The notes beneath the pieces were generated by a model that had not been told where the DNA came from, did not search any database, and saw only the letters and a program-made list of their open reading frames with translations. The translations under genes were made by a program, and so were the position numbers. Positions 4,818-33,541 of a stretch of 64,000 bases of DNA are shown piece by piece; the first letter of the stretch is position 1; each line of letters begins with the position of its first letter. The DNA comes from Escherichia coli (GTDB taxonomy: Bacteria > Pseudomonadota > Gammaproteobacteria > Enterobacterales > Enterobacteriaceae). The DNA is taken from the NCBI RefSeq assembly GCF_051903065.1, contig NZ_CP178439.1. One strand, 5' to 3'.

Positions 4818-4938
4818 TATGGGAAAAGTTACTTTGCCTGCTCTGCTTGGGGCCACCGTGATTGGTTTTGTCGTATTTGCTTTAACCAGCTTTTACTACA
4901 GGTCAGAATATATACCAAAAAGGGGTAATGACTCCAAC

Positions 4939-5442
4939 TTATTGATAGTGTTTTATGTTCAGATAATGCCCGATGACTTTGTCATGCAGCTCCACCGATT
5001 TTGAGAACGACAGCGACTTCCGTCCCAGCCGTGCCAGGTGCTGCCTCAGATTCAGGTTATGCCGCTCAATTCGCTGCGTATATCGCTTGCTGATTACGTG
5101 CAGCTTTCCCTTCAGGCGGGATTCATACAGCGGCCAGCCATCCGTCATCCATATCACCACGTCAAAGGGTGACAGCAGGCTCATAAGACGCCCCAGCGTC
5201 GCCATAGTGCGTTCACCGAATACGTGCGCAACAACCGTCTTCCGGAGCCTGTCATACGCGTAAAACAGCCAGCGCTGGCGCGATTTAGCCCCGACATAGC
5301 CCCACTGTTCGTCCATTTCCGCGCAGACGATGACGTCACTGCCCGGCTGTATGCGCGAGGTTACCGACTGCGGCCTGAGTTTTTTAAGTGACGTAAAATC
5401 GTGTTGAGGCCAACGCCCATAATGCGGGCTGTTGCCCGGCAT
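4939..5442 (-). CDS. insB: IS1 InsB (normally made as an InsAB fusion by frameshifting)
   Basis: 167-aa [25 protein letters not shown] matches IS1 InsB as I remember it. Confidence 0.85.
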
Positions 5443-5636
5443 CCAACGCCATTCATGGCCATATCAATGATTTTCTGGTGCGTACCGGGTTGAGAAGCGG
5501 TGTAAGTGAACTGCAGTTGCCATGTTTTACGGCAGTGAGAGCAGAGATAGCGCTGATGTCCGGCGGTGCTTTTGCCGTTACGCACCACCCCGTCAGTAGC
5601 TGAACAGGAGGGACAGCTGATAGAAACAGAAGCCAC
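5361..5636 (-). CDS. insA: IS1 InsA
   Basis: 91-aa [42 protein letters not shown] matches IS1 InsA as I remember it. Confidence 0.9.
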
Positions 5637-6033
5637 TGGAGCACCTCAAAAACACCATCATACACTAAATCAGTAAGTTGGCAGCATCACCCAAAAAGGA
5701 GTGTATTAATCGTTCCGGACGCACCCATTAGTATCGAAGATGGCAGTAACGCTTTTCCCGTTCAGACAGTAATAATGAACGATCCAACTCTTATTGATAA
5801 ATTTGTAGGAGAGGACAATATTAATGAGGAGAATGCTTTTGACTATCACAAAAGTAACGTTTTGGAACCTAATTACAAACATGAAATATCTAGAACGAGC
5901 CAGATAGATAAAGCTGAAATGAATCATCCATCTGTTCGTGAAAACTGGGCCAGAGCAGGTGATCCCTATATCGTTCCTCAGATGTCTGACAGCGAACGAA
6001 ATCTAAAAATTAAACGATTCCAGAAACCTACAA

Positions 6034-7401
6034 GTGGAGCTAATCATGGACATTAAAAAGGCCTGGGAAAATAAGACCGTCAGACTTTCTGTTATTGGCG
6101 CTCTGCTGGTAGTGATTGTTTATATTATTAGCCAGTCTATTTTTTCCACACCAGTTAAGAAAGAAAAGAAAACACAGAAAAAAGACATGCAGACCAATTT
6201 GTTGTTAGATGATTCGCAAATGAACAAATTGAGTAATGAAGAAAGCCAGAAAGTATATAAGGAAATGGTTAAGCAAAACCGACTTGATCAAAATGCGGCG
6301 AAAGAGGACCGCGAAAAAGCAGAAAAAGCCCAACAGGAAACTAAAGCCCAAGTTGCAAGTTTAACTTCTCAACTTCAGCAGCTGTCTCAGCAAATTAATG
6401 ATATGCAGACTAATCGAAACGGCAATCGTAACTTGGATGCTGGTAGTTCGCGTAAAACGATTAATGAGCAGGCACCGGCAGCTCCTTATCAGCTTAATGC
6501 TAATGCGCCGATTAATGGCGTAAACCCTAATTACGCGTCTATCACACCTACGCGTAATAGCCCGATGAGAACAATCACACAAAGTTCCATTAAGACTAAT
6601 GGTACCGATGGTGTCATTCAGGTTATGCCCGTGTCTGAAAACAGAATCAAGGAAGGCAGAGAGGTCATTGCAGGAGATAAAGCGCCTACTCGGACTGTAC
6701 GAGGTGATGGTACTGCGCCAGTTGATAGCAAAGCGCGGCATGCTGCCCGAAAAGATGAAATGTTTCTTCCGGCAACATCTATTATCACTGGTGTTCTGAT
6801 TACCGGGCTTGAAGCGCCTACAAGCCTTTCTTCCAAATCAGAACCAATGCCAGTAACAATGCGTATTAAAAAAGATGTCATCATGCCCAATAATTTCACC
6901 ATGGATTTGCGTGACTGTAACCTTCTGGGTTCAGCTGTTGGTGATTTGGCGTCACAGCGTGCTTACATACGTGCCACTTCTATCTCTTGTGTTAATTCAA
7001 AAGGGAAAGCTTTTGACGTAAAACTGGAAGCATATGCTGTAAGTGAAAATGACGGAAAAAATGGGATCCGAGGCACGCTTATCAGCCGAAATGGTAACGC
7101 AATTGCAGGAGCTGCATTTGCCGGTGGACTTTCTTCACTTGCCGGTAGCTTAAGCCCCAGTAAGGTATCTTCACTTAACATCGACCCTAATTCACAGGCT
7201 CAGTATCAGTCCCCTAATTTTGGTGCACTTGGGGCATTAGCCGGGGCTGGTGCAGCTCAAGGTGGCCTTAATCGACTCGTCGATTACTACACCGCAATTG
7301 CAGAACAACAGTGGCCAATCGTAGAAATTAGCCCTGGCCGAGCTATTACATTTGTCGTTCAGACCGGAACTACAATTCCAACGAATCTGACCAGTCGCTG
7401 A
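6034..7401 (+). CDS. trhB: TraB-like (VirB10-like) mating-pair-formation protein
   Basis: 455 aa; N-terminal membrane anchor, coiled-coil Q-rich segment and Gly/Ala-rich C-terminal domain; operon position. Confidence 0.6.
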   Translation: MELIMDIKKAWENKTVRLSVIGALLVVIVYIISQSIFSTPVKKEKKTQKKDMQTNLLLDDSQMNKLSNEESQKVYKEMVKQNRLDQNAAKEDREKAEKAQQETKAQVASLTSQLQQLSQQINDMQTNRNGNRNLDAGSSRKTINEQAPAAPYQLNANAPINGVNPNYASITPTRNSPMRTITQSSIKTNGTDGVIQVMPVSENRIKEGREVIAGDKAPTRTVRGDGTAPVDSKARHAARKDEMFLPATSIITGVLITGLEAPTSLSSKSEPMPVTMRIKKDVIMPNNFTMDLRDCNLLGSAVGDLASQRAYIRATSISCVNSKGKAFDVKLEAYAVSENDGKNGIRGTLISRNGNAIAGAAFAGGLSSLAGSLSPSKVSSLNIDPNSQAQYQSPNFGALGALAGAGAAQGGLNRLVDYYTAIAEQQWPIVEISPGRAITFVVQTGTTIPTNLTSR

Positions 7402-7408
7402 GGTTTAA

Positions 7409-7891
7409 ATGGATAGTTTAGAAAAAAAAGAATCGACTGAATCAGCTGGACCTGAAATCACTAAAAAAATGGTGCGAGAAAGGACAACAAAAAAAATTAC
7501 CTTCGAAATTGATATTGAAAAAATATTGAAGTATTTATTTTTCTTCGCCTTTGCCGTTTTGGTCATTATTTATGGTTATAAAGGCTTTATGAATGTTTAC
7601 GATTACTTCAATAAACAATCACAGCCTTCGTACAAGATTGCAGTGCTTGACATGCCTGAATTACGTAAGGAATTTTTCAAGCATCACGAAGGCCGTACTG
7701 CTGACAATGATAGAACTCAATTCGAAGAATATTTCAGAACATTAATGAAGATCTACCGTGACCGTGGCTATTTAATTATTGATGCAACGCTTGCCGTTAC
7801 TGTACCGGATAGTGTTGAAATCGTCACTTATATGGAACTTGAAGATAGCTCTGAAGCGGTACAATCAAGTTCTTATAATGCAAAGAAGTAG
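7409..7891 (+). CDS. Hypothetical membrane protein inside the transfer operon
   Basis: 160-aa ORF with a transmembrane helix (LKYLFFFAFAVLVIIYGY), tightly spaced after trhB. Confidence 0.5.
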   Translation: MDSLEKKESTESAGPEITKKMVRERTTKKITFEIDIEKILKYLFFFAFAVLVIIYGYKGFMNVYDYFNKQSQPSYKIAVLDMPELRKEFFKHHEGRTADNDRTQFEEYFRTLMKIYRDRGYLIIDATLAVTVPDSVEIVTYMELEDSSEAVQSSSYNAKK

Positions 7892-7904
7892 AGGGCACCC
7901 AATA

Positions 7905-8762
7905 GTGAAAAAGTTACTTTTCCCTTTAATGGCGGCTTTCGCCATTATGGCGAATACGGTCACTTATGCTTCAGAGCAGGTCCTAACTAATAGTGATGCT
8001 GCTGCGTTAATGGCAAAGGCAAAGGAAGGCGGCGTTTCACCCAGTCAGATCTCGGGTGCGTTATCAAAAATGAAAGGATATAAACCTAAGGATGCCATAT
8101 ACATTCCTTCTGGTGGGCTATACCTCTTTCAGGACGAGCGTTCGCAGCTAATGGCAGTAACGACCGATGGCCGATACTCCCTTACTGGGGGAAGCCTTGT
8201 TGATGTAATTAAACGTAAACCTGTTCTGACTGTAGAAGAAATCAGAAATTCCTATTTTATTAGTCTTGATGAGGCCCCCTTCCCTCTGGAAACTGTAGCG
8301 TCCATTCATCTGGGAAATTCAAAGCTTAAGAGACAAGCAGCCATTTTCTTAACACTTGATTGTGACGGTTGCATGGAACTTGTTAAGAAATTTTATGCAG
8401 ATCGGGACAAGTATCGGATAGATATTGTTTTAGTTCCCTCACCCGGTGAGCCAAAAGAAGAGCTTAGAAGGCTCTGGTGTAGTAAAGAAAAAGGAAAAAT
8501 AAACAACCTCGATATTCTTCGTTGGCTAATGGGAAGCAAATCCGACATTGAAAAAAGATTGCTCTCTCAAAAAGAAGCAGAAGAATGTCCGGCGGAACCT
8601 TTGGTAGCGTCATTGATGCTCGCAGGAATTTATAAATTGCAGGGTGTACCTTCAGTTGTCAGACAGGATGGTTTGGCTGGTAATGGCATTCCAAAAGATT
8701 TCGACTACTGGTTGAACCAAAGCGTTGAACCTCTCTTAAAAAATCCATTTGAGACAAATTAA
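7905..8762 (+). CDS. Periplasmic thioredoxin-fold protein with CxxC (CDGC) motif, DsbC/TrbB-like
   Basis: GTG start after RBS GAGGG; signal peptide KKLLFPLMAAFAIMANTVTYA; CDGC motif; F-type systems carry DsbC-like TrbB proteins. Confidence 0.5.
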   Translation: MKKLLFPLMAAFAIMANTVTYASEQVLTNSDAAALMAKAKEGGVSPSQISGALSKMKGYKPKDAIYIPSGGLYLFQDERSQLMAVTTDGRYSLTGGSLVDVIKRKPVLTVEEIRNSYFISLDEAPFPLETVASIHLGNSKLKRQAAIFLTLDCDGCMELVKKFYADRDKYRIDIVLVPSPGEPKEELRRLWCSKEKGKINNLDILRWLMGSKSDIEKRLLSQKEAEECPAEPLVASLMLAGIYKLQGVPSVVRQDGLAGNGIPKDFDYWLNQSVEPLLKNPFETN

Positions 8763-8771
8763 GGCTAGTTT

Positions 8772-9722
8772 ATGAACATCAAAAGATTGGTACTCAGTGC
8801 TCTGGTTGTAGGTACATCCTCATATCTTACGGGGTGCTCCATCGGGAGTTCCGAATCCGAATGTCCAGGCATTGAAAAGGGCGTTATCTGTAAAGGTCCT
8901 CGCGAAGTTATGGAGTTAACTAATAATCGAGATGATCTGTCTGCACTTGCGGGGGAAGAGTCGGAATCGGGAAAGGAGAAATCGGCTGTCAATGACAGCC
9001 GTTATCCAACTGAAATTAGCCCTCCAGGGGAAGTCAAATATCCACAGTCTACAACCCTTAAAAATCAGCCTGTGGCTTATTCAAAAACCGAAATTAAGCC
9101 AGTTGGTCAGTTACCTGTCATGTACGATAAAACTTTAAAAATGGGTGCCCCTACTTCATCCATTGGACCACGGCCTATTTCTGGTGTACCGGTTAATTCA
9201 AACGTAAGGATGACTAGCAGTTATAGCACTGCCTCTTCAGCTGGTAACCCTTTCGTTCATCCGGCTGCGGAAGTCGTTAAACAAACAAGCTATCCGGTTT
9301 CTGCTGGAAATGCACCACGCTACGTTGCACCTAATTCTGATATCAGCCCTGGCAAGGATATGTACTCTCTTTACAATGGCCAGCCCGTTAACCCTACTCT
9401 CAACACTGGGCAGATCCAGCAATACCGTTCGCAAGGTTATAAACAAGCTGTAGTGGCTCCTGAACCACTTGCTGTTCTGCAACAGGGGAAAGTAATGAGA
9501 ATTACTTTTGCACCTTATACCGATGATAACGATGCGCTTAATCTTCCCGGCTACGTTTATGTCAACGTAAAACCGCAAACATGGATTGCTGGCAAGAATT
9601 CGACCTCAAACCCAGCTCGCATAGTTCCTTTAGAAGTACAGGATGCGGCCCGGGAAAATATGCAGCAGCAACAAAAAGCAACTAAAGCTGTCTCTTCGAA
9701 CGGCATTGTTAGACAACTGTAA
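8772..9722 (+). CDS. trhV: TraV-like outer-membrane lipoprotein
   Basis: Lipobox LTGC followed by a Cys-containing stretch; 316 aa; sits just before the traC-like gene. Confidence 0.55.
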   Translation: MNIKRLVLSALVVGTSSYLTGCSIGSSESECPGIEKGVICKGPREVMELTNNRDDLSALAGEESESGKEKSAVNDSRYPTEISPPGEVKYPQSTTLKNQPVAYSKTEIKPVGQLPVMYDKTLKMGAPTSSIGPRPISGVPVNSNVRMTSSYSTASSAGNPFVHPAAEVVKQTSYPVSAGNAPRYVAPNSDISPGKDMYSLYNGQPVNPTLNTGQIQQYRSQGYKQAVVAPEPLAVLQQGKVMRITFAPYTDDNDALNLPGYVYVNVKPQTWIAGKNSTSNPARIVPLEVQDAARENMQQQQKATKAVSSNGIVRQL

Positions 9723-12829: not shown

Positions 12830-15800
12830 CTTTTAACTTATTTAACCCCCTTTATCGCCAATCTGTGATTTTCTAATGTTAGCCTACAGTTCTAGGGCCC
12901 TTGCTCCCATGATGCGAATCCTTCCACCTAATAAAGATTAACGCCTCATTCCTGTATGCCGGTCTTACGACGCCAGTGCTCGGGCTATTTTCGGTCCTAA
13001 CAAGACCTGGCGAGAGATTTAATCAGGGCGTGGTGTGACTGAGCAGCAGCTGGGGCACTGTTATCCGCTTGCAGATTTAACCCCCTTAATCGCCAAACTG
13101 GGGTACTGTCCTGATGCTGGCCTTCAGTTCTGGGCTGGGTGGCTATCACTTCCTCCCATAATGCGAAATGTAACTGCTGATACAGATTAACGTCATATTC
13201 CTGCGTGCCGGTCTGCCAACACCAGTGCACGGGCTTTTTTCGGTCATCACATTACCGGGCAGGAGATTTTATCAGGGCGTGGTGTGACTGAGCAGAAGCT
13301 GGGGCACTGTCAGCAGCTTGCAGATTTAACCCCCTTAATCGCCACACTGGGATTCTGGTCTGATATTGACCTTCCGTTCTGGGCGGGGTTCGGTTTGCTA
13401 ACACTTACTCCCATGATACGAAATGTGCCTGCTGATACAGATTAAAATCACATTACTGCATACCGGTCTGCCGACACCGGTGCATGGGCGATTTCCGACG
13501 ATCTCAAGAACATATGGGAGATTATATCAGGGAGAGTAGTATGCCTGAGCAGCATCTGAAGGCACTGTCAGCCGCTGTCAGATTTAACCCCCTTAATCGC
13601 CAAACTGGTGTTCTGTCCTCATGCAGGCCTTCAGTTCTGAGCTGGGTTGCTATCACTTGCTCCCATAATGCGAAATGTACCTGCTGATACAAATTAACGT
13701 CGTATTCCTGTATGCCGGTCTGCCGACACCAGTGCTCGGGCTATTTTCGGTCCTAACAAGACCTGGCGAGAGATTTAATCAGGGCGTGGTGTGACTGAGC
13801 AGCAGCTGGGGCACTGTTATCCGCTTGCAGATTTAACCCCCTTAATCGCCAAACTGGGGTACTGTCCTGATGCTGGCCTTCAGTTCTGGGCTGGGTGGCT
13901 ATCACTTCCTCCCATAATGCGAAATGTAACTGCTGATACAGATTAACGTCATATTCCTGCGTGCCGGTCTGCCAACACCAGTGCACGGGCTTTTTTCGGT
14001 CATCACATTACCGGGCAGGAGATTTTATCAGGGCGTGGTGTGACTGAGCAGAAGCTGGGGCACTGTCAGCAGCTTGCAGATTTAACCCCCTTAATCGCCA
14101 CACTGGGATTCTGGTCTGATATTGACCTTCCGTTCTGGGCGGGGTTCGGTTTGCTAACACTTACTCCCATGATACGAAATGTGCCTGCTGATACAGATTA
14201 AAATCACATTACTGCATACCGGTCTGCCGACACCGGTGCATGGGCGATTTCCGACGATCTCAAGAACATATGGGAGATTATATCAGGGAGAGTAGTATGC
14301 CTGAGCAGCATCTGAAGGCACTGTCAGCCGCTGTCAGATTTAACCCCCTTAATCGCCAAACTGGTGTTCTGTCCTCATGCAGGCCTTCAGTTCTGAGCTG
14401 GGTTGCTATCACTTGCTCCCATAATGCGAAATGTACCTGCTGATACAAATTAACGTCGTATTCCTGTATGCCGGTCTGCCGACACCAGTGCTCGGGCTAT
14501 TTTCGGTCCTAACAAGACCTGGCGAGAGATTTAATCAGGGCGTGGTGTGACTGAGCAGCAGCTGGGGCACTGTTATCCGCTTGCAGATTTAACCCCCTTA
14601 ATCGCCACACTGGGGTTCAGTCCTGATAGTGTCCTTCCGTCCTGGGCTCGGTTGCTAACACTTGCTCCCATTGCGCCTGCTGATACAGATTAAAGTCACA
14701 TTACTGCATACCGATCTGCCGACTCCGGTGCATGGCTTTTTCCGATAATCACAAGGACGGACGGGTGATTTTATCTTTGCATAGTATGTCTGAGCAGCAT
14801 CAGAAGGCTCTGTCAGCCACTGGCAGATTTAACCCCCTTAATCTCCAAACTGGGATCAGTCCTGATAGTGTCCTTCCGTCCTGGGCAGGGTTGCTAACAC
14901 TTGCTCCCATGATACGAAATGCGCCAGCTGATACAGATTAACGTCTCATTACTCCATGCCGGTCTGCCGAAACTGGTGCATAGCTTTTTTCGATATTCGC
15001 ATGAACAGACGCTTGATTTTTTCAGGTTGTAATATACCTGAGCAGCATCTGAAGGCACTTTCAGTCTCTGTCAGATTTAACCCCCTTAATCGCCAATCTG
15101 GGATTTTCTGATGTTAACCTACAGTTCAAGGCCCTTGCTCCCATGATGCGAACCTTGCAACCTGATAAAGATTTAAGCCTCATTCCTGTATGCCGGTCTT
15201 ACGACTCTAGTGCACGGGGACTATTTTCGGTCATAATAAGACCTGGCGGGAGATTTAATCAGGCGTGGTGTGACTGAGCAGAAGCTGGGGCACTGTCAGC
15301 CGCTGGCAGATTAAAACCCTTTATTCGCCATCTCAAGACGTCATTATGGGTAGTCCTTTTAACTTTCTAAGGACCATTAAGCTTAAACTCCGTTTAGAGA
15401 ATGACGTAAGATTTAGGCTAAGCAGGTTAAGTGATCCCCGCTCCCGGGTTGAACACTTTATTCATCGTACGAGCGAAAGATTGTCCTTCGGGAAATATTT
15501 CTTATACACCGCTCGGGCACTTACAGCCACTGGCGGATTTAACCCCCTTAATCGCCAAACTGGGGTACTGTCCTGATGCTGGCCTTCAGTTCTGGGCTGG
15601 GTGGCTATCACTTGCTCCCCTAATGCGAAATGTGTCTGTTGATACAGATTAACGTCATTTTCCTGCGTGCCGGTCTGCCGACACCAGTGCACGGCCTTTT
15701 TTCGGTCATTACATTACCGGGCAGGAGATTTTATCAGGGCGTGGTGTTACTGAGCAGGAGCTGGGGCACTATCAGCAGCTTGCATATTTAACTCCCTTAA

Positions 15801-16410
15801 TCGCCAAACTGGTGTTCTGTCCTCATGCTGGCCTTCAGTTCTGGGCTGGGTTGCTATCTCTTGCTCCCATAATGCGAAATGTATCTGCTGATACAGATTA
15901 ACGTCATATTCCTGTATGCCGGTCTGCCGACACCAGTGCTTGGGCTATTTTCGGTCATAACAAGACCTGGCGAGAGATTTACTCAGGGCGTGGTGTGACT
16001 GAGCAGCAGCTGGGGCACTGTCATCCGCTTGCAAATTTAACCCCCTTAATCGCCAAACTTGGGTTTTGTCCTGATGCTGGCCTTCCGTTCTGGGCGGGGT
16101 TGCTATCACTTGCTCCCATCATGCGAAAAGTGCCTGCTGATACAGATTAACGTCATATTCCTTCATGCCGGTCTGCCGACACAAATGCACGGGCTTTTTT
16201 CGGTCCTTACAATACCGGGCAGGAGATTTAATCAGGGCGTGGTGTGACTGAGCAGCAGCTAGGACACTGTCAGCCGCTGGCAGATTTAACCCCCTTAATC
16301 GCCACACTGGGGTTGCCTCCTGAAGTTGGGTTTCAGTTCTGGGCTAGGTTGCTAACTCTGCTCCCATAATTCGTAGTGGGCCTACTCAAGAGATTAACAC
16401 CTCATATCTT
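12830..16410. repeat. Tandem array of about 15 units of about 249 bp, including a near-identical 756-bp (three-unit) duplication
   Basis: Anchor CAGATTTAACCCCCTTAATCGCCA recurs at about 12836, 13072, 13321, 13579, 13828, 14077, 14335, 14584, 14824, 15072, 15306, 15534, 15782, 16032 and 16281; track ORF pairs 12997..13230 / 13753..13986 and 13484..13687 / 14240..14443 are identical. Confidence 0.9.
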
Positions 16411-32479: not shown

Positions 32480-33541
32480 ATGATGGTGAAAAAATTCAAA
32501 AAGTTACTTTTAGAGTTCATTGTAGCAGTTATGCTTTCGCTTTCTATACCTGGTATGGCTATGGCAGCAGATGCTGGAGTCCCTGGGGCTATGTGTCAGT
32601 CAGCTGGAGTGTGGCAGGGCTTGATTAAGAATATCTGTTGGAGCTGCATTTTTCCCATGAGGATAATGGGCATAGGGGCTGCTCCAGAAGGCGCTGCACC
32701 TTCACGTCCGGGTTGCTACTGCACAGATCAGAACGGCGTACCGGAAATAGGTTGGCAATTGAGCTTCTTTCAGCCGGTGAAGATTGTAGAAGTTGTAAAG
32801 AGCCCCTGGTGCAGCCCCTTTCTTGAAGGCACGATGCTTCAAAAATCGCAGTTTGATATTGGTAAAAGCAACACTAATCAGCCAATGACAGCAACTGAAG
32901 CCGGATTTTACGATGTTCATCTTTGGGAGTTCCCAATCATGACAATGCTCAAATTACTGATTATTGGCGAGTGCACTGCTGAACCCTATATAGATGCCAG
33001 CCTGACCTATATAAGCGAAGTGGACCCTATGTGGGAAAGTGATCTGCTTACACTCGTCCTGAATCCCGAGGCAGTAGTTTTTGCAAACCCAATTGCCTCA
33101 ATGGTGTGCGCTGCTGACTGTGTAGCAGTAACAGCAGGAAAGGATAATCTCGCTGCATACTTTTGTGCCGGATGCGATGGCAACCTTTACCCATTAACCG
33201 GCCACATTTACGCAAATGATGACGCTGTAAGGACGAGTTCACTGATTACCCAGCGTCTTCTGACAAAACTACATCGCCAAGGCATGCTGATGCGAACGAT
33301 GGGAGCAGACGCAATGTGTGAGAAAACGTGGGAATACTTTACACCACGTTCCCAGTATCGGCTTTCAATGCTTTTCCCTACTCCTGAGGCGAAGGGACCG
33401 GATTGCTGTCATCGTCTTGGTGATTCGGTACACGACTGGTCAACCCTTAAAGGTGGGCGCAAAAAAATAGGCAACGATAATTATGTCTATATGTTGTGGC
33501 GTTACAATGACTGTTGTGTTCGCTACGTTCCGGGCGTTTGA
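32480..33541 (+). CDS. trhU: TraU-like pilus assembly protein
   Basis: Signal peptide MMVKKFKKLLLEFIVAVMLSLSIPGMAMA; Cys-rich periplasmic protein of about 350 aa as in F TraU (track start 32381). Confidence 0.6.
   Translation: MMVKKFKKLLLEFIVAVMLSLSIPGMAMAADAGVPGAMCQSAGVWQGLIKNICWSCIFPMRIMGIGAAPEGAAPSRPGCYCTDQNGVPEIGWQLSFFQPVKIVEVVKSPWCSPFLEGTMLQKSQFDIGKSNTNQPMTATEAGFYDVHLWEFPIMTMLKLLIIGECTAEPYIDASLTYISEVDPMWESDLLTLVLNPEAVVFANPIASMVCAADCVAVTAGKDNLAAYFCAGCDGNLYPLTGHIYANDDAVRTSSLITQRLLTKLHRQGMLMRTMGADAMCEKTWEYFTPRSQYRLSMLFPTPEAKGPDCCHRLGDSVHDWSTLKGGRKKIGNDNYVYMLWRYNDCCVRYVPGV

Follow-up and report, generated by a model that had tools for sequence, protein, structure and literature searches.

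The window, i.e., the whole 64-kb stretch of DNA that was analysed, belongs by sequence comparison to an IncHI2 plasmid of the R478 type. It starts with repHI2A, followed by the Tra2 transfer region with the gene order trhA-like, trhL, trhE, trhK, htdO, trhB, a 160-aa ORF, htdT, trhV and trhC. A 2.4-kb query taken around htdT was found at 100% identity in more than 1,100 PLSDB plasmids from Salmonella, E. coli, Enterobacter and Klebsiella, which were typed as IncHI2A, MOBH and MPF_F and in which the gene was annotated as "htdT: protein-disulfide isomerase HtdT". The htdT ORF alone matched 1,405 plasmids, including IncHI1 plasmids at approximately 73% DNA identity, and its DNA was 100% identical to the annotated gene on NZ_CP037959.1, while the representative of the HtdT protein cluster was 285 aa long and 99% identical. 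On the basis of these matches, the ORF at 7905–8762 is htdT, an already named IncHI gene. The protein part of the locus is already known, HtdT being an ordinary named component of IncHI plasmids, a point missed by an earlier note on this DNA, as was the fact that the gene had been studied.

The htdT reading frame (plus strand) runs from a GTG at 7905 to a TAA at 8760–8762 and encodes 285 aa according to the ORF list and its translation. The coordinates of the frame and the CDGC motif, both given in the earlier note, proved to be exact, the motif occupying residues 153–156. A Shine-Dalgarno-like GAGGG (7891–7895, plus strand), read from the sequence, is located 9 nt 5' of the GTG and shares nucleotides with the stop codon of the ORF before it. 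The N-terminus encoded at 7905–7970 (plus strand), MKKLLFPLMAAFAIMANTVTYA, followed by SEQ, had the appearance of a standard Sec signal peptide on inspection, with a KK n-region, a hydrophobic core and a small-residue cleavage site, the predicted cleavage falling after TYA (TYA|S).

The start codon needed consideration. HtdT of the IncHI1 plasmid R27 and the RefSeq HtdT records (WP_183079335.1, WP_010892304.1) represent the same gene, with 100% DNA identity to the IncHI2 records and approximately 73% to IncHI1, but the RefSeq models begin at an internal ATG (8010 in the window), are 250 aa long and lack the signal peptide. However, the MKKLL-type N-terminus and a length of 283–285 aa were common to the HtdT homologues down to 46% identity, 15 of the 16 aligned homologues retaining the N-terminus, and GenBank CP056496.1 annotates the gene in its 285-aa form. 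Because both the N-terminus and the length are conserved and the longer form is also annotated, the 285-aa model is preferred, and GTG 7905, the start used in the earlier note, is better than ATG 8010. The 250-aa RefSeq model, common and N-terminally truncated, would mislead predictions of localisation.

The gene is co-linear with the mating-pair-formation genes and is located within the trhA-to-trhC transfer operon directly 5' of trhV (8772–9722, plus strand), which encodes a TraV lipoprotein with three cysteines. The earlier note had placed htdT between trhB and trhV: the downstream half of this placement was correct, but htdT is separated from the TraB/VirB10-like trhB (6046–7401, plus strand) by the 160-aa ORF at 7409–7891 (plus strand), which that note had overlooked. 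This ORF is conserved, includes a hydrophobic segment and is designated "transcriptional regulator" in RefSeq; Pfam and NCBIfam scans gave no family match for it. A syntenic ORF of 156–181 aa was present between trhB and htdT in all related loci examined, and the order trhB, small ORF, htdT, trhV, trhC was kept in the related Tra2 loci, including IncHI1. Further upstream in the same operon, htdO is disrupted by an IS1 element (4923–5690, minus strand) with InsA/InsB ORFs, recognised by comparison with the uninterrupted plasmid NZ_CP037959.1 and flanked by an 8-bp duplication, CAAAAAGG. On this copy of the plasmid, the insertion may exert a polar effect on htdT and the other downstream genes of the operon, lowering their expression. 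A promoter and terminator scan around htdT produced no signal above shuffles, in keeping with its membership of the operon, and the htdT gene of R27 has been assigned to the AC operon, with approximately threefold induction at 25°C (PMC7366339).

The fold of HtdT was addressed with an AlphaFold2 model, which had a mean pLDDT of 76.7, reaching 87–96 over residues ~125–270 (means of 10-residue blocks). These residues form the C-terminal thioredoxin domain, in which a helix spanning residues 156–165 begins at the CxxC. Structure prediction had been named beforehand as the check for a thioredoxin fold, and the fold was present. The N-terminal half was modeled with less confidence: pLDDT was 41–66 over residues 21–90, covering the N-terminal domain and a 35-residue extension, and the values were 47–81 over the part that aligns with the N-terminal domain of DsbP (residues ~57–120), where the model has strands at 64–100. 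A Foldseek search of the model against the PDB returned DsbP as the top match (E 3e-10), followed by Salmonella and E. coli DsbC, ScsC and DsbG, all with a probability of 1.00. At the sequence level, phmmer against PDB sequences matched DsbP with E 1.3e-12 over residues 57–272, and a profile of 17 HtdT sequences improved this to 7.6e-16, while E. coli DsbC remained a weak match (E 0.16). Together with the signal peptide and the HtdT annotation, the structural matches bear out the earlier description of the protein as a DsbC-like periplasmic protein of the thioredoxin fold. HtdT itself had no Pfam or NCBIfam family match, and a permissive Pfam scan (E up to 10) gave noise without Thioredoxin_2 or DsbC_N. 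Thirteen of the 17 HtdT homologues matched Thioredoxin_2 weakly (best 5e-4), and the missing family match of HtdT reflects divergence and not the lack of a fold.

The residues expected of such a protein were present. HtdT has four cysteines, two of them in the C153-D-G-C156 active site (codons 8361–8372, plus strand), which is nearly invariant, precedes the predicted helix and aligns with CAVC of DsbP and CGYC of DsbC. The other two, Cys192 within WCSKEKG (8478–8480, plus strand) and Cys228 (8586–8588, plus strand), both invariant, form a presumed structural disulfide: the former aligns with the cysteine of WCAKDK in E. coli DsbC and YCAKDK in DsbP, and the latter with that of "ETCDP" in DsbP, comparable to the C141–C163 pair in the helical insert of DsbC. 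Pro249 within QGVPSVV (8649–8651, plus strand) occupies the cis-Pro loop position of thioredoxin folds, an assignment made from the alignment, where it matches GVP of DsbP and G247-V-P249 is invariant, and from its position in the model before the beta strand 250–253. Residues ~57–120 align with the N-terminal domain of DsbP, and residues 23–56 make up a conserved extension of approximately 35 residues (DAAALMxKAKEGG) that is absent from both DsbC and DsbP.

The closest relative with a solved structure is DsbP of the IncA/C plasmids and the SXT/R391 ICEs (PDB 4ML1, 4ML6, 4MLY), with approximately 24% identity over both domains. The two proteins have in common the two-domain build, the aligned CxxC, second Cys pair and cis-Pro, and a location among MOBH/MPF_F transfer genes. 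They differ in the active-site dipeptide (CDGC in HtdT, CAVC in DsbP), in the approximately 35 extra conserved N-terminal residues of HtdT and in gene position, htdT being placed before a traV-type gene and dsbP before traC; in SXT, s054 adjoins traC (PMC2791158). DsbP forms a domain-swapped dimer, and a homodimer of the DsbC type is putative for HtdT. The DsbC of E. coli and Salmonella (1EEJ, 4I5Q), DsbG and ScsC also resemble HtdT in having a thioredoxin domain into which a helical subdomain is inserted, preceded by an N-terminal domain whose role in oligomerisation is putative in HtdT, and the structural cysteine context WC(A/S)K(D/E)K is common to DsbC and HtdT. In contrast to these similarities, the overall sequence similarity of HtdT to DsbC is very low, as seen from the E-value given above, the active site is CDGC and not CGYC, and the Pfam DsbC_N and Thioredoxin_2 models do not match. 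TrbB of the F plasmid is similarly a plasmid-encoded periplasmic CxxC protein of the thioredoxin fold, compared here by description: its N-terminus is disordered and does not dimerise (PMC7555446), in contrast to the N-terminal domain of HtdT, which is predicted to be structured and beta-rich and is homologous to that of DsbP.

From this homology, HtdT is predicted to act in the periplasm as an isomerase-type thiol:disulfide oxidoreductase. We consider it, with a probability of roughly 85%, to be the representative on IncHI plasmids of the DsbC/DsbP-like disulfide isomerases that plasmids encode; Sec export, the fold and the CDGC are read from the protein itself and the role from its family. 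Two other readings were weighed. A thioredoxin fold by itself leaves the direction of the reaction unfixed, the CDGC dipeptide is unlike the CGYC of DsbC, and several Dsb-type genes are present on the plasmid, all of which would be compatible with HtdT acting as a DsbA-like oxidase that donates disulfides; however, its best homologues (DsbP, DsbC, DsbG, ScsC) are without exception two-domain proteins of the isomerase type and a separate DsbA-family gene is already encoded on the plasmid, making such a role highly improbable. The second reading concerns the need for the active site. Sixteen of the 17 aligned family members had the CxxC, but in one natural lineage, P0018 (14 member sequences on 28 contigs), CDGC is replaced by GNDT and the remainder of HtdT is retained. 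A redox-independent role therefore exists in at least some relatives, and the protein could be mainly a periplasmic chaperone or T4SS assembly factor with a dispensable CxxC, like the CxxC-less TraF of F. Chaperone activity is attributed to DsbC in work cited in PMC11315126. The conserved N-terminal extension, which DsbC and DsbP lack, could, moreover, serve as a docking element. For HtdT as a whole, this seems unlikely in view of the near-universal CxxC, which is accompanied by the cis-Pro and the second Cys pair. In addition, Elton et al. in 2005 reportedly found that overproduction of R27 HtdT relieved the hypersensitivity to DTT shown by mating in a dsbA mutant, and that this rescue needed the CxxC.

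If HtdT is indeed an isomerase-type protein, as its family suggests, it would be kept reduced in the periplasm by DsbD, as is the case for DsbC and TrbB, and the reduced form would shuffle or reduce wrong disulfides in cysteine-rich T4SS proteins of the same plasmid, such as TrhU and TrhN, thereby aiding assembly of the pilus and of the mating pair. Cysteine counts of the transfer proteins were 16 for TrhU, 32 for TrhN and 3 each for TrhV and TrhK. The earlier suggestion that clients would be of the TraU, TraN and TraV type was thus plausible for the first two, which are candidate clients, but TrhV with its three cysteines did not fit it. HtdT probably would be partly redundant with the host DsbC and with a second plasmid-encoded DsbC paralogue. 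Redundancy is to be expected because the IncHI2 backbone carries further thioredoxin-fold genes: its Tra1 region includes a DsbA-family gene, a second DsbC-like gene, whose 249-aa product has a canonical CGYC and is 24% identical to HtdT, and a 348-aa thioredoxin-family gene adjoining trhH. The products of trhF, dsbC and htdT of R27 were, reportedly, all predicted by Elton et al. in 2005 to have the thioredoxin fold, and plasmid DsbC homologues of F-like transfer systems have been studied since that time and are now textbook knowledge.

Plasmid-encoded thioredoxin-like proteins aid conjugation in F, R27, SXT and Rts1 (PMC10838148; PMC2791158), with different degrees of dependence on the host: deletion of F trbB or R27 dsbC led to a drop in transfer only in dsbC-null hosts (PMC10838148), while orf206 of Rts1 and s054 of SXT were required even in dsbC+ hosts (PMC10838148; PMC2791158). 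TrbB is a DsbD-dependent isomerase, redundant with the host DsbC, with TraN, TraU and TraH as putative clients whose disulfides it may proofread (PMC11315126; PMC10838148). Isomerase or reductase activity has been published for DsbP as well as TrbB and, reportedly, at the level of a phenotype for R27 HtdT. Experiments of the kind proposed in the earlier note have, in essence, already been done in R27, F, SXT, Rts1 and IncA/C.

A separate, plasmid-wide matter, which stands apart from htdT and may be new, concerns a short DNA motif at the start of the gene. The 13-mer AAAAGTTACTTTT at 7909–7921 (AAAAGT T ACTTTT, with the core AAAGTNACTTT at 7910–7920) spans htdT codons 2–6, encoding KKLLF, and was found six times in the window; AAAAAGTTACTTT was found four times. 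The earlier note had listed it as a perfect copy of a dispersed motif within the signal-peptide codons, which was correct, and the motif itself is real, but that note did not recognise it as a palindrome under selection at the DNA level. The core, AAAGT-N-ACTTT, reads as a perfect palindrome of odd length and is frequently lengthened to AAAAGT-N-ACTTTT. There were 19 copies of the core in the window against approximately 0.2 expected, and the maximum in any of 100 dinucleotide shuffles was two. Exact copies were as numerous as copies with one mismatch (19 against 18, where 0.15 and 5 would be expected), indicating that the palindrome is real and sharply defined.

The complete IncHI2 plasmid (278 kb) carries 50 copies of AAAGTNACTTT, nearly all in the backbone and none in the resistance islands. 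When the sites were placed by hand against the RefSeq gene tables, approximately 28 of the 50 turned out to be intergenic, six further sites had a start codon no more than 40 nt away (htdO, htdT, trhU, trhH, a thermonuclease gene and one other ORF), and two were in the divergent mobI/oriT region. The motif was also over-represented in related plasmids, with 11 copies in 41 kb of IncHI1, nine in 28 kb of another IncHI plasmid and 17 in 21 kb of a distant Klebsiella plasmid, where four of them lie upstream of trhA.

A start with MKKLL is very common in signal peptides and the peptide is conserved among the HtdT homologues, so that the 13-mer in htdT could be a by-product of encoding KKLLF, or a matter of chance, with no meaning at the DNA level. 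This is contradicted, apart from the large excess of copies over expectation, by several observations. The copies occur between genes as well as inside them, where three reading frames are represented. The palindrome at the htdT start recurs unchanged at the corresponding position in IncHI1 (L003), in L004 and in the 46%-identical Klebsiella homologue (L005); the codons AAA AAG TTA CTT T are the same in four lineages, while the start codon is GTG, TTG or ATG and the flanks differ. At orthologous sites all 10 specified bases were kept with the centre base varying, although the surrounding DNA was only 66–77% identical. Finally, 22 of the 27 KVT[FL] and three of the eight KKLL peptides on the plasmid were spelled with the exact motif, far above what codon choice would predict. 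The chance that the htdT copy is a mere coding by-product is accordingly minimal, and AAAGTNACTTT is under selection at the DNA level.

Several functions of the motif could be dismissed. A hairpin in RNA or single-stranded DNA was ruled out, since the 5+1+5 palindrome leaves a loop of 1 nt. It differs in sequence from the known forms of matS, the SlmA site, the TrpR operator, the Ter sites and restriction sites, and 10 specified bases are too long for a Type II site. With a hairpin excluded by the 1-nt centre, a binding site is the natural reading, and the AAAGTNACTTT copies are most likely binding sites of a dimeric plasmid protein. Such sites would accumulate where they are cheapest, i.e., in intergenic DNA and signal-peptide codons, or where they are regulatory, and the palindrome may lie over htdT codons 2–6 since signal-peptide codons tolerate such sites. 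The absence of signal above shuffles in the scan around htdT means that there is no evidence of an internal promoter at the palindrome.

Apart from a P1-type ParB, the plasmid encodes three ParB/Noc/KorB-like HTH_ParB proteins of 394, 387 and 351 aa. The gene for the 394-aa protein (WP_001272970.1; NZ_CP037959.1, 218080–219264, minus strand) has AAAGTNACTTT upstream of its start at -227 and -101 in IncHI2 and at -223 and -105 in IncHI1A, and a 35%-identical Klebsiella homologue is preceded by six copies between -869 and -121. In IncHI2, no AAAGTNACTTT was present upstream of the P1-type ParB adjoining parA or of the 387-aa and 351-aa paralogues; in L007, the motif does precede two HTH_ParB genes, of 362 and 377 aa. 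By this circumstantial evidence, the 394-aa protein is a candidate for the binder of AAAGTNACTTT.

Together with the copies upstream of the gene for the 394-aa protein, the arrangement resembles the KorB operators of the IncP plasmid RK2 (OB, TTTAGCSGCTAAA). Both sets consist of perfect odd palindromes with a free or degenerate centre base, dispersed over the backbone at approximately one per 4–5 kb, in promoters as well as inside genes; the IncHI2 plasmid, like RK2, encodes ParB/KorB-like HTH proteins. The differences are that the sequence of AAAGTNACTTT is not that of OB, that there are approximately 50 sites instead of 12, and that the similarity of the candidate HTH_ParB proteins to KorB is weak (E 0.009). 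Searches of the available literature for the motif, IncHI palindromes, operators and ParB-like regulators found nothing relevant, binding sites are unmentioned in the R27 transcriptome paper, and the plasmid-wide, conserved set of AAAGTNACTTT sites is apparently undescribed. We tentatively suggest, at somewhat less than even odds, that the htdT palindrome is one operator of an undescribed IncHI regulon or loading-site network, in which a protein of the ParB/KorB type would bind the approximately 50 sites, the candidate being WP_001272970.1, which would itself be autoregulated.

If this is true, a single factor would link the transfer operons (through htdT, htdO, trhU, trhH and the trhA promoter) with the oriT region and with many genes of the backbone, comparable to the KorB–OB system. 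Among the major carriers of mcr-1, ESBL and typhoid resistance genes are the IncHI plasmids, and how their transfer is regulated, by TrhR/TrhY/HtdA/H-NS, is understood only in part. A global regulator of the KorB type, acting on approximately 50 defined sites, would, if true, be a concrete and testable addition to this picture.

The perfect 11-nt palindrome AAAGTNACTTT occurred 19 times in the window versus 0.2 expected, with sites at 987, 1772, 4825, 7910, 19856, 21930, 24866, 25060, 26709, 28953, 30136, 32500, 39023, 39702, 46148, 49893, 54530, 58723 and 62168, and one whole IncHI2 plasmid contained 50 copies. More than half of the sites were in intergenic or gene-start positions, and the sites were kept across IncHI1 and other IncHI lineages with a variable centre base. 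The copy at 32500 was inside the signal-peptide codons (VKKFKKLLLE...) of trhU (window 32486–33541), and shared with the copy in htdT both the reading frame and the codons AAA AAG TTA CTT T. In the literature searched, no description of the palindrome was found. The set probably represents operators or loading sites of a dimeric DNA-binding protein.

A candidate for an autoregulated binder of the palindrome is a 394-aa HTH_ParB protein (ParB/Noc/KorB-like), whose gene is located outside the window, on the minus strand of the complete reference IncHI2 plasmid (NZ_CP037959.1, 218080–219264; 18080–19264 in its part L012). In both IncHI2 and IncHI1, the palindrome was present approximately 100 and 225 bp upstream of the protein's own start codon, and a Klebsiella homologue with 35% identity had six copies upstream. 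The corresponding loci in L014 (1501–2706) and L015 (1492–2733) were likewise outside the window. Between trhC and parA, the window included an extended tandem array whose repeat unit is 249 bp (12900–16370; approximately 9.8 copies with 76% match plus approximately 3.5 copies with 86% match), for which PLSDB had no annotated genes and which may act as a centromere or in incompatibility.

Within the transfer operon, trhB and htdT were separated by a conserved 160-aa ORF (window 7409–7891), annotated in RefSeq as 'transcriptional regulator', which had a hydrophobic, membrane-like segment LKYLFFFAFAVLVIIYGY and gave no match in Pfam and NCBIfam. Its counterparts were syntenic in every IncHI-like locus examined (156–181 aa), and those of IncHI1 (L003, 19506) and of another IncHI plasmid (L004, 7065) had a palindrome copy within the ORF. 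An IS1 (insA/insB; window 4923–5690, minus strand), flanked by an 8-bp target duplication CAAAAAGG, was inserted after approximately codon 35 of htdO, which is located upstream of trhB, htdT, trhV and trhC in one common operon; the reference IncHI2 plasmid had no IS1 in htdO. The insertion may have a polar effect on htdT, and this copy of the plasmid may be impaired in transfer. Three additional thioredoxin-fold proteins were encoded outside the window, in the Tra1 region of the IncHI2 plasmid NZ_CP037959.1: a DsbA-family protein (187807–188616), a DsbC-like protein with a CGYC motif and 24% identity to HtdT (190267–191016), and a 348-aa thioredoxin-family protein adjoining trhH (199297–200343). 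In the DsbA-family and DsbC-like genes, the stop codon was abutted by a palindrome copy (187798 and 190263, respectively).

The RefSeq models of HtdT (WP_183079335.1 and WP_010892304.1) comprised 250 aa from an internal ATG at window 8010 instead of 7905 and missed the conserved signal peptide, while homologous sequences supported a 285-aa protein with a GTG/TTG/ATG start. Residues 23–56 (window 7971–8072) formed a conserved N-terminal extension (DAAALMxKAKEGGVS...), predicted with low confidence as a helix, to which nothing corresponds in DsbC or DsbP and which may be a docking element. In the P0018 lineage of HtdT homologues (71% identity; 28 contigs) the CxxC was replaced by G-N-D-T, and the remainder of the protein was retained, including the cis-Pro and the second Cys pair. 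This suggests a redox-independent role in the P0018 lineage, which would resemble that of TraF of F.
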